Positions 37,826-38,467 of a DNA stretch of 64,000 bases are shown here, in pieces. Origin of the DNA: Candidatus Saccharimonadales bacterium (GTDB taxonomy: Bacteria; Patescibacteriota; Saccharimonadia; Saccharimonadales; Saccharimonadaceae); assembly GCA_036378955.1 (NCBI GenBank), contig DASUVM010000007.1, positions 36,442-100,441 of the forward strand, written 5' to 3'. The position numbers and the translations under genes are program-made. Position 1 is the first letter of the stretch; each line of letters opens with the position of its first letter. Under the pieces are notes generated by a model that did not search any database, had not been told where the DNA came from, and worked only from the letters and a program-made list of their open reading frames with translations.

Positions 37826-37854
37826 TTGACTTATCACTCAATAAATGCTATTAT
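37826..37854 (+). promoter_or_regulatory. consensus sigma70-type promoter of the GC-rich two-gene membrane cassette
   Basis: TTGACT (37826-37831), 17 nt, TATTAT (37849-37854). The AT-rich promoter directly abuts GC-rich coding sequence. GGAGG lies 6 nt before ATG 37887. Confidence 0.55.
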
Positions 37855-37886
37855 TTAGTTATCCGTTCGACACCCTGGAGGCTGCA

Positions 37887-38090
37887 ATGGCACGCGCCAA
37901 GCAGCAGACAGCGCGAGAGCCGCTCGCCATCATAAGGCTAGTGAGAGACTTTCCCAGAACGACGGCGTACCTTACCGCAGCCACGATGGCCTTGACCGTT
38001 GTGGCAATTTTTAGACCACTCGGCGACGTGGTGGGTACCGCTGCCGTTAGCGTGTTATTGGGAATCGTCTGGCTATCGCGCCAGCACTAG
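37887..38090 (+). CDS. small two-TM membrane protein (high-GC cassette, gene 1)
   Basis: MARAKQQTAREPLAIIRLVRDFPRTTAYLTAATMALTVVAIFRPLGDVVGTAAVSVLLGIVWLSRQH. This is the SD-supported internal start of ORF 37845..38090. Confidence 0.55.
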   Translation: MARAKQQTAREPLAIIRLVRDFPRTTAYLTAATMALTVVAIFRPLGDVVGTAAVSVLLGIVWLSRQH

Positions 38091-38118
38091 TATTCAACCA
38101 ACAAAGAAGAGGTGTGAC

Positions 38119-38421
38119 ATGCGACCCTACAACAAGACCGCTATCACTGTCAGGCTCGAGCTGGCCACCCGCGGCAGTCCCACCAAGACGGTGCCCAACA
38201 CCATCGTTGGCGAAAGACCGCGGCGCCCACTCCTCAGAGAAGCCCTGGTGCTGGTGCTGGCCGCCCTCGTGGCACTGCTCGTGCTGGCCACGGGAGTATG
38301 GTTCGTCTGCTACTGGGCAAGCGAAGGCGACGGACTGGCCATCGCCATGGTCATTCTCTTTACGCTATTCGGGCTACTGGTAGTGGCAGGCGTCACCACC
38401 AAATTGCTACCAGAGCAGTAA
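38119..38421 (+). CDS. small two-TM membrane protein (high-GC cassette, gene 2)
   Basis: MRPYNKTAITVRLELATRGSPTK...ALVLVLAALVALLVLATGVWFVCYW...IAMVILFTLFGLLVVAGVTTKLLPEQ. This is an internal ATG of ORF 37999..38421. A hand count on 38221-38280 gives 43/60 G+C. Confidence 0.55.
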   Translation: MRPYNKTAITVRLELATRGSPTKTVPNTIVGERPRRPLLREALVLVLAALVALLVLATGVWFVCYWASEGDGLAIAMVILFTLFGLLVVAGVTTKLLPEQ

Positions 38422-38432
38422 GGTGAAAAGAC

Positions 38433-38467
38433 GGGCGCGGTGCAGGAACTCCTGCCCGCGCCCTTTT
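38433..38467 (+). terminator. strong intrinsic terminator of the two-gene cassette
   Basis: GGGCGCGGTGCAGG, loop aact, CCTGCCCGCGCCC, followed by TTTT. Confidence 0.75.

Follow-up and report, generated by a model that had tools for sequence, protein, structure and literature searches.

A GC-rich two-gene cassette encoding predicted small membrane proteins in the truB/PIG-L spacer of a Saccharimonadales genome

Phage 'morons', as reportedly described by Juhala and Hendrix, are autonomous promoter-gene-terminator units of deviant base composition. Many morons encode small membrane proteins. Bacterial chromosomes are also said (Oliveira, Touchon, Cury and Rocha, 2017) to contain intervals between core genes that are hot spots of horizontal gene transfer. 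Here, we describe a locus with likenesses to both: a two-gene cassette between truB and a PIG-L deacetylase gene of a Candidatus Saccharimonadales bacterium (GenBank assembly GCA_036378955.1). The window is a 64,000-nucleotide stretch of contig DASUVM010000007.1 (C7 in our numbering; positions 36,442 to 100,441), and the genome comprises 1.14 Mb in nine contigs with 47.8% GC, among relatives whose genomes measure 0.5-1.6 Mb. With a confidence somewhat better than even, we read the cassette as a real transcription unit, specific to this genome, laterally acquired and built like a moron. Its parts, in window coordinates, are as follows (ORF, open reading frame).

37732-38499, no strand: segment inserted relative to an ancestral truB/PIG-L spacer of ~20 bp, consisting of a 129-bp AT-rich left part, a 604-bp GC-rich unit and a short AT-rich tail
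37826-37854, forward strand: predicted sigma-70-type promoter, TTGACT-17 nt-TATTAT with an extended -10 TG, 10/12 match
37877-37881, forward strand: Shine-Dalgarno GGAGG of ORF1, 5 nt before the ATG at 37887
37887-38090, forward strand: ORF1, 67 aa, ATG start, TAG stop
37980-38014, forward strand: terminator-like hairpin of 10 bp, then AAUUUUUAG, inside ORF1 at codons 32-43
38109-38113, forward strand: Shine-Dalgarno GAGGT of ORF2, 5 nt before the ATG; the surrounding 28-nt spacer is purine-rich and lower in GC
38119-38421, forward strand: ORF2, 100 aa, ATG start, TAA stop
38433-38468, forward strand: predicted intrinsic terminator, GGGCGCGG(U)GCAGG-AACU-CCUGCCCGCGCCC then UUUU, with its stem at 38433-38464

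The expression signals form a complete set. The promoter consists of TTGACT at 37826-37831 and TATTAT at 37849-37854 with TG preceding the -10 element, and its spacing places the inferred transcription start near 37861, such that this near-consensus sigma-70 promoter would drive a leader of ~26 nt. Promoters matching at 10/12 positions or better occur genome-wide at a density of 1.7e-4 per nt, giving a chance expectation of ~0.02 in the 120 nt before ORF1, or 0.004 when the TG is required. The 3' end of this genome's 16S rRNA reads ...GGATTACCTCCTTTCT (at length, CCTCCTTTCT), which both Shine-Dalgarno sites fit, and both cistrons are expected to be translated from their own sites. Downstream of ORF2, the terminator stem of 8+5 bp, with one bulged base and a 4-nt loop, is followed by TTTT; it folds with a free energy (dG) of -37.3 kcal/mol (z -6.6), and 0/200 shuffles were equally stable. 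A terminator of this strength is predicted to block read-through into the co-directional PIG-L gene (ATG at 38512), thereby shielding it. An initial annotation, made from the sequence alone, had listed the TTGACT-17-TATTAT promoter, the GGAGG ribosome-binding site, ORFs of 67 and 100 aa and a closing GC-rich hairpin of about 13 bp plus T4; each of these was recovered where it had been placed.

The base composition of the cassette sets it apart from its surroundings. Between the predicted transcription start and the last base of the terminator stem (37861-38464), the unit is 60.1% GC; the 129-bp left part of the insert is 34.9% GC, the 47 bp to the right of the unit are 25.5% GC, and the values for truB and the PIG-L gene are 44-45%. 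GC at the third codon position (GC3) is 0.67-0.75 in the cassette ORFs versus ~0.41-0.44 in truB and PIG-L, with a genome median of 0.47. A recount of positions 38221-38280 gave exactly the 43/60 G+C counted earlier by hand. The identities of the flanking genes were confirmed with Pfam.

The coding capacity of the two ORFs was assessed by comparing their lengths with those that arise in dinucleotide-shuffled versions of the GC-rich segment (605 bp), and their coding signals with those of ORFs of at least 60 aa from shuffles of that segment. A same-strand pair totalling 167 aa arises in 7% of shuffles. GC at codon positions 1/2/3 is 0.60/0.51/0.67 in ORF1 (GC3-GC2, P=0.03) and 0.65/0.46/0.75 in ORF2 (P=4e-4). 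T occupies 36% of second codon positions in ORF1 (P=8e-4) and 40% in ORF2 (P=1e-4), and hydropathy is similarly distinctive, with P=0.006 for the peak in ORF1 and P=4e-4 for two transmembrane (TM) windows in ORF2. In a frame plot, the GC-rich third position changes frame at the intercistronic spacer. A collection of 5.8 billion proteins holds ORF2 as a 140-aa product starting from TTG at 37999; the two-cistron reading is preferred because the extension is Trp/Cys-rich, because a Shine-Dalgarno site precedes 38119, and because of the frame plot. On these signals, ORF2 is very probably a translated gene, and ORF1 is probably one as well. It had been proposed at the outset that a lack of both conservation and codon-position periodicity would mark the GC-rich DNA as non-coding; conservation is indeed lacking, but the codon-position signals are significant.

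The interval that the cassette occupies was surveyed at 32 family loci, with spacers compared at 26. truB and PIG-L are adjacent in 26 of the 32 and are usually divergent, and in 19 loci the gap measures 17-101 bp, mostly 17-24 bp. Short spacers usually hold the palindrome (T)AGTATACT(A), located 5-9 nt from each start codon; it is found in the spacers of loci L016, L106-L111, L115, L116, L118 and L120. From its position, the palindrome looks like a shared, overlapping -10 element of two leaderless mRNAs, those of truB and PIG-L. The window retains what would be half of it:

38500-38505, forward strand: candidate -10 element TATACT before PIG-L, 6 nt from the ATG; flanking context, outside the cassette

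Taken as the surviving half of that palindromic ancestral -10 element, this TATACT implies a leaderless PIG-L mRNA. Occupied loci mostly keep a TATACT copy on either side; here, the truB side is new AT-rich DNA. Inserts of 271-1139 bp are found in six genomes, and five of the six hold an ORF with a GC3 of 0.67-0.80.

This genome: the two-ORF cassette; GC3 0.67 and 0.75
Same-genus genome, L032:1319-2227, reverse strand: 302-aa ORF on the opposite strand with a twin-arginine translocation (Tat)-like signal, accompanied by a GC hairpin; GC3 0.67
Genome G006: 117-aa ORF; GC3 0.68
Genome G063: 103-aa ORF; GC3 0.80
Genome G203: 221-aa membrane protein; GC3 0.79
Genome G184: 271 bp without a clear ORF; GC3 not applicable

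No two of the insert proteins are related. In the same-genus genome, truB aligns at 72% and PIG-L at 66%, and nothing between them aligns. A gap of ~20 bp in most relatives, together with unrelated inserts in six genomes, identifies the spacer as an insertion hot spot and the cassette as specific to this genome. No direct or inverted repeats beyond chance were found at the borders (chance accounts for a 7-bp CTAGGTA pair), neither a tRNA nor an att-like repeat was found at the cassette, and neither the hairpin nor the borders have copies elsewhere in this genome. The genes identified nearby, which are housekeeping genes or orphan ORFs, include no integrase. Genome-wide, the AGTATACT palindrome is not enriched, and so it is no general insertion target.

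Several further observations were made at this slot. A possible new truB promoter was read by eye at 37772-37801 on the reverse strand (TTGACC, 18 nt, TATTGA), back-to-back with the cassette promoter within the inserted AT-rich 129 bp; it is missing from the promoter scan because its -10 element ends in A. In this genus, truB seems to have gone from a leaderless to a leadered state. The 302-aa slot protein of the same-genus genome carries a Tat-like SRRSVLMG signal and a weak hint of Peptidase_M23 (E=0.04), and the collection of 5.8 billion proteins yielded no relative of it. A secreted, GC3-rich protein of 308 aa, encoded at C4:26425-27351 in the genome that carries the cassette, is 29% identical to it, which indicates a genus-level family occupying different slots. 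Just left of truB in the window lie two more orphan ORFs of native-like composition, at 36036-36365 (forward strand; 109 aa, three hydrophobic segments, GC3 0.50) and at 36406-37044 (reverse strand; 212 aa, GC3 0.39). Neither has a match in Pfam, NCBIfam or PHROGs, nor a counterpart in the same-genus sister genome.

Both cassette products are predicted, by hydropathy and the positive-inside rule, to be N-in/C-in helical hairpins. The ORF1 product (P0001) has a basic N-tail (residues 1-26, 6 K/R), hydrophobic stretches of only ~16 residues each at 27-42 and 48-63 joined by RPLGD, and a 4-aa C-tail, SRQH. The ORF2 product (P0002) has a longer basic N-tail (residues 1-41, 9 K/R), a first TM segment at ~42-66, an acidic loop ASEGDG, a second TM segment at ~73-94 and a 6-aa C-tail, KLLPEQ. 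Single-sequence AlphaFold2 models of ORF2 place helices at 38-67 and 72-96 with a predicted local distance difference test (pLDDT) score of ~80, lending support to the predicted hairpin, and give the N-tail no secondary structure at low confidence. For ORF1, AlphaFold2 draws one helix over residues 7-66 (pLDDT 86), and its hairpin rests on hydropathy and on the Pro-Leu-Gly-Asp break. The earlier assignment of two hydrophobic helices to each protein is therefore upheld for ORF2 by both approaches and for ORF1 by hydropathy only. The two proteins show no mutual similarity, and neither has a paralogue in its own genome. The models are generic helices, and Foldseek comparison of the ORF2 model with the PDB returned nothing below E=4. 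Two specific identities were rejected by inspection: an F-ATPase c-subunit-like hairpin, there being no mid-membrane carboxylate and no Gly-rich helix, and a Tat signal peptide in ORF2, in which RRPLLR is followed by a second TM segment and no cleavage-type site is present.

Homology searches were extensive and returned no relatives. Searches with hmmscan against Pfam, NCBIfam and PADLOC, and likewise against PHROGs, were reported to E<=1 and gave no family match for either ORF, only sub-threshold compositional ones, of which the best was MgtE (E=0.006, 17 bits versus a cutoff of 27.6). Neither ORF has a homologue among PDB sequences. A word-indexed search of the 5.8 billion clustered proteins yielded no relative of either, ORF2 retrieving only itself, as it also did with phmmer over 1.84 billion representatives; an exact-product contig look-up of the 140-aa form of ORF2 found nothing. 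Back-translated, neither ORF had a match in genome, viral or metagenome contigs, and blastn and tblastn against phage (50,697 records) and plasmid records found no similar DNA and no homologue. Alternative frames of the cassette have no match in Pfam, and Rfam and tRNA scans of the cassette detected no RNA family and no tRNA. Six-frame searches found both ORFs absent from 60 relatives, and ORF2 absent from 400 family genomes representing 95 genera, which runs counter to the suggestion that the pair might be widespread and syntenic in relatives from the Candidate Phyla Radiation.

These results bear in two ways on the initial annotation, which had proposed a foreign, probably actinobacterial or phage, module. 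Foreignness is favored by the GC3 contrast with the neighboring genes, by absence from the same-genus genome and, for ORF2, from the 400 family genomes, and by the ~20-bp gap of relatives. The named donors find no backing in the searches, which turned up no homologue or similar DNA in phages, plasmids, representative genomes, metagenomes or protein collections. NCBIfam searches of ten other high-GC3 genes were likewise uninformative as to the donor taxon. An actinobacterial or actinophage donor is suggested only by context, in that a WhiB gene (Pfam E=3.6e-26) lies in a similar GC-rich islet at 35203-35457, 2.4 kb from the cassette. A wall-anchored-protein islet is also found nearby.

The cassette is one of many similar units in its genome. 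We counted 157 patches of at least 58% GC per 300 bp and, in a crude set of 1204 ORFs, 64 with a GC3 of at least 0.62. Comparison was made with the same-genus sister genome, which is complete in a single contig (1.26 Mb, 45.8% GC). Approximately 75% of genes with a GC3 of 0.40-0.55 are shared with the sister, at ~80% protein identity; for genes with a GC3 >0.60, the shared fraction is 32-48%, at ~22-77% identity (median 42-54%), and those high-GC3 genes that are shared have a high GC3 in the sister as well (median 0.64-0.80). Among high-GC3 genes, 23% have a promoter matching at 10/12 positions or better within 150 nt, versus 9%, and 58% have a strong downstream hairpin, versus 8%, although the latter measure is partly confounded by GC content. 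High GC thus marks an accessory, fast-evolving gene class, and its persistence in both genomes is not what simple transfer followed by amelioration predicts. The sister genome lacks a 98-aa GC-rich ORF found here at C3:186239-186535 (forward strand; GC3 0.82, two TM segments), a second orphan broadly like those of the cassette. Two other GC3-rich loci were noted by eye: C8:90875-92653 (reverse strand, GC3 0.70), which resembles a large serine recombinase, and C3:103688-104745 (reverse strand, GC3 0.63-0.66), which resembles an IS3-type transposase pair. If so identified, they may have served to carry genes of the GC-rich pool.

A broader reading follows this pattern further and makes the cassette a unit of a family-wide GC3-rich 'accessory compartment' of small promoter-to-terminator units that use codons in a manner foreign to the core genome, occupy fixed housekeeping gaps, turn over rapidly in protein sequence and stay GC-rich in both species. 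We regard it as doubtful. Were it true, something beyond one-off transfer and decay must sustain GC-rich units, with three candidates: continual replacement from actinobacterial-host or phage DNA via natural transformation, a GC-maintaining process, or transfer of whole transcripts. The last is considered because the bounds of the GC-rich stretch are those of the predicted transcript, namely its start site and its terminator.

Returning to the cassette as a moron-like, laterally acquired unit, its history and role can be sketched as follows. Saccharibacteria, which grow on Actinobacteria, are capable of natural transformation (PMC10633639). DNA carrying the unit may have been taken up by natural transformation and recombined at a permissive site, the truB/PIG-L spacer of ancestrally ~20 bp, which would have been struck independently by unrelated inserts in at least six family genomes. 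The promoter lies in 35% GC DNA that is itself inserted, which argues against a raw piece of actinobacterial chromosome. Since both parts of the 35%/60% GC mosaic are absent from relatives, the immediate donor would already have had the AT-rich promoter, and was probably a mobile element or a different Saccharibacterium; as for the GC-rich part, it may ultimately derive from a genome of ~60% GC or higher. Both proteins would enter the cytoplasmic membrane as helical hairpins, with cytoplasmic basic N-tails and almost no C-tail, and may associate, at low certainty, into a small membrane-embedded complex of accessory, non-essential function. As a guess, we favor a protective (immunity, exclusion) or envelope-modulating accessory role over lysis, with no single class being assigned more than a low probability.

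Several observations weigh against this interpretation. At 60% GC, ORF length is not significant, an ORF of 100 aa arising in 36% of shuffles. The coding signals of ORF1 are moderate (P 0.001-0.03), a terminator-like hairpin lies inside it, and its product is absent from the 5.8-billion-protein collection. Lacking homologues, the cassette offers no ratio of nonsynonymous to synonymous substitution (dN/dS), no nameable donor and no function from relatives. The shared high-GC3 genes stay GC-rich despite low identity, and so high GC alone is no proof of recent arrival. Finally, the protective or envelope role is guessed from architecture and context alone.

These points lend some weight to the view that the segment is recent, foreign passenger DNA, neutral or decaying, whose ORFs are open merely because the DNA is GC-rich or young and bring the cell no benefit. 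ORF lengths within chance, a want of relatives in every collection searched, and the confinement of the cassette to one genome, in a slot that tolerates many unrelated inserts, all fit such passenger DNA. Less easily accommodated are the promoter, both Shine-Dalgarno sites and the terminator, which are intact and correctly spaced, and the codon-position and hydropathy signals, which match both frames and switch at the intercistronic spacer; moreover, no stops or frameshifts are seen. We consider passenger DNA unlikely, while allowing it a real chance.

The hairpin within ORF1 raises a second alternative, in which ORF1 is no gene and 37861-38118 is a long leader whose hairpin attenuates transcription of a sole gene, ORF2. 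The hairpin folds with a dG of -17.0 kcal/mol (z -4.8), an equal hairpin plus T-run arises in only 1.4% of shuffles of the transcribed unit, and ORF1 has both weaker coding statistics than ORF2 and no entry in the protein collection. On the other hand, ORF1 is preceded by a perfect GGAGG at 5 nt and shows its own excess of T at second codon positions (P=8e-4) and hydropathy signal (P=0.006); the order GC3>GC1>GC2 is best, of the three frames, in that of ORF1 and holds up to its stop, and no Rfam family matches. Hairpins within translated ORFs are normally masked by ribosomes. The structure could be a chance occurrence, a latent terminator coupling ORF2 expression to ORF1 translation, or part of an attenuating leader, and we judge the sole-gene version quite unlikely.

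Two further roles named in the initial annotation, a toxin/immunity pair and small transporter subunits, are guesses. Of these, a membrane toxin with its immunity protein or antidote was also weighed. One hairpin protein would damage or depolarize membranes and its partner would neutralize it, serving locus stabilization, competition or abortive defense. Two co-transcribed small hydrophobic proteins are a common architecture of toxin/immunity systems, and the cassette presents such a pair in accessory DNA with its own promoter and terminator. However, no PADLOC, Pfam or NCBIfam profile matches. Type I toxins usually have fewer than 60 aa and one TM segment and are paired with an antisense or overlapping regulatory RNA; the cassette proteins, of 67 and 100 aa, have two hydrophobic segments apiece, and scans of the cassette found no antisense promoter and no Rfam match. 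We hold this explanation to be improbable.

Very improbable is a holin/antiholin-like pair left from a phage lysis cassette, an option raised in the initial annotation. Small size, two TM segments and N-in/C-in topology are as in class II holins, and some phages have separate holin and antiholin or accessory genes. Several defining features fail, however: the C-tails of 4 and 6 residues leave no charged C-terminal domain; the neighbors are truB, PIG-L, rpsO and pnp, with no endolysin, spanin or phage gene nearby; and there is no holin match in PHROGs or Pfam, no tblastn match in the phage records and no dual-start motif.

That the ORFs are one four-TM gene of ~178 aa split by a frameshift, or an assembly chimera, is barely credible: the two lie in different frames, the ORF2 frame is open back to 37996 so as to overlap the end of ORF1, and the fused topology would be consistent, but the codon-position GC switches at the 28-nt Shine-Dalgarno-bearing spacer, outside the overlap, and a chimera needs two junctions inside a 124-kb contig, while the same kind of islet is found in the closed, single-contig sister genome.

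Taken alone, the moron-like cassette is an ordinary orphan accessory operon as found in most bacterial genomes, of a familiar kind and with no known relatives. Its value lies in being a clean, small example of gene gain by an ultra-small epibiont, a complete promoter-to-terminator unit in a 20-bp spacer between apparently leaderless housekeeping genes, with neither neighbor's frame disrupted. Together with the nearby WhiB and wall-anchored-protein islets, it documents a GC-rich accessory gene pool in soil Saccharibacteria. Should the two proteins turn out to work at the membrane of the epibiont, for instance in protecting it from host products or phages, they would merit names as new families. 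A lead of greater interest is the broader class of GC3-rich accessory genes.

Integron cassettes are promoterless ORFs with an attC site, arrayed next to intI; this assignment was rejected for a single unit with its own promoter, no repeated hairpin family in the genome and no integrase nearby. Paired small multidrug resistance (SMR) transporter subunits were rejected as well: SMR subunits have four TM helices in ~105-120 aa and a conserved membrane-embedded Glu in the first, whereas the cassette proteins have two TM segments apiece and match no SMR profile. In CrgA-type small actinobacterial membrane proteins (PF06781), a basic N-tail of ~25-40 residues precedes two TM helices, after which the chain ends almost at once. 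The cassette proteins are similar in architecture, which is a lead only, and WhiB, another regulator gene of actinobacterial type, is close by; the absence of any match to PF06781 even at E<=1 means that CrgA membership is not supported. Class II holins and pinholins, such as S68/S71 of phage 21, resemble the cassette proteins in size range, two TM helices and predicted N-in/C-in topology (for ORF1, from hydropathy only), but the latter lack the charged C-terminal domain, dual start, lysis-gene neighborhood and family match. As in chromosomal hot spots, the truB/PIG-L interval is empty in most genomes and is occupied in others by accessory genes that are unrelated from one genome to the next; it differs in that inserts comprise only one or two genes, without an integrase, tRNA or border repeat, and in that the target is a ~20-bp spacer with a putative shared palindromic -10 element. 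Although the cassette lies in the chromosome between housekeeping genes rather than in a prophage, with no phage genes nearby and no phage homologue, it shares with morons its own predicted sigma-70 promoter and intrinsic terminator, a composition unlike that of both neighbors, a position between genes that are adjacent in relatives, and predicted products that are small membrane proteins.

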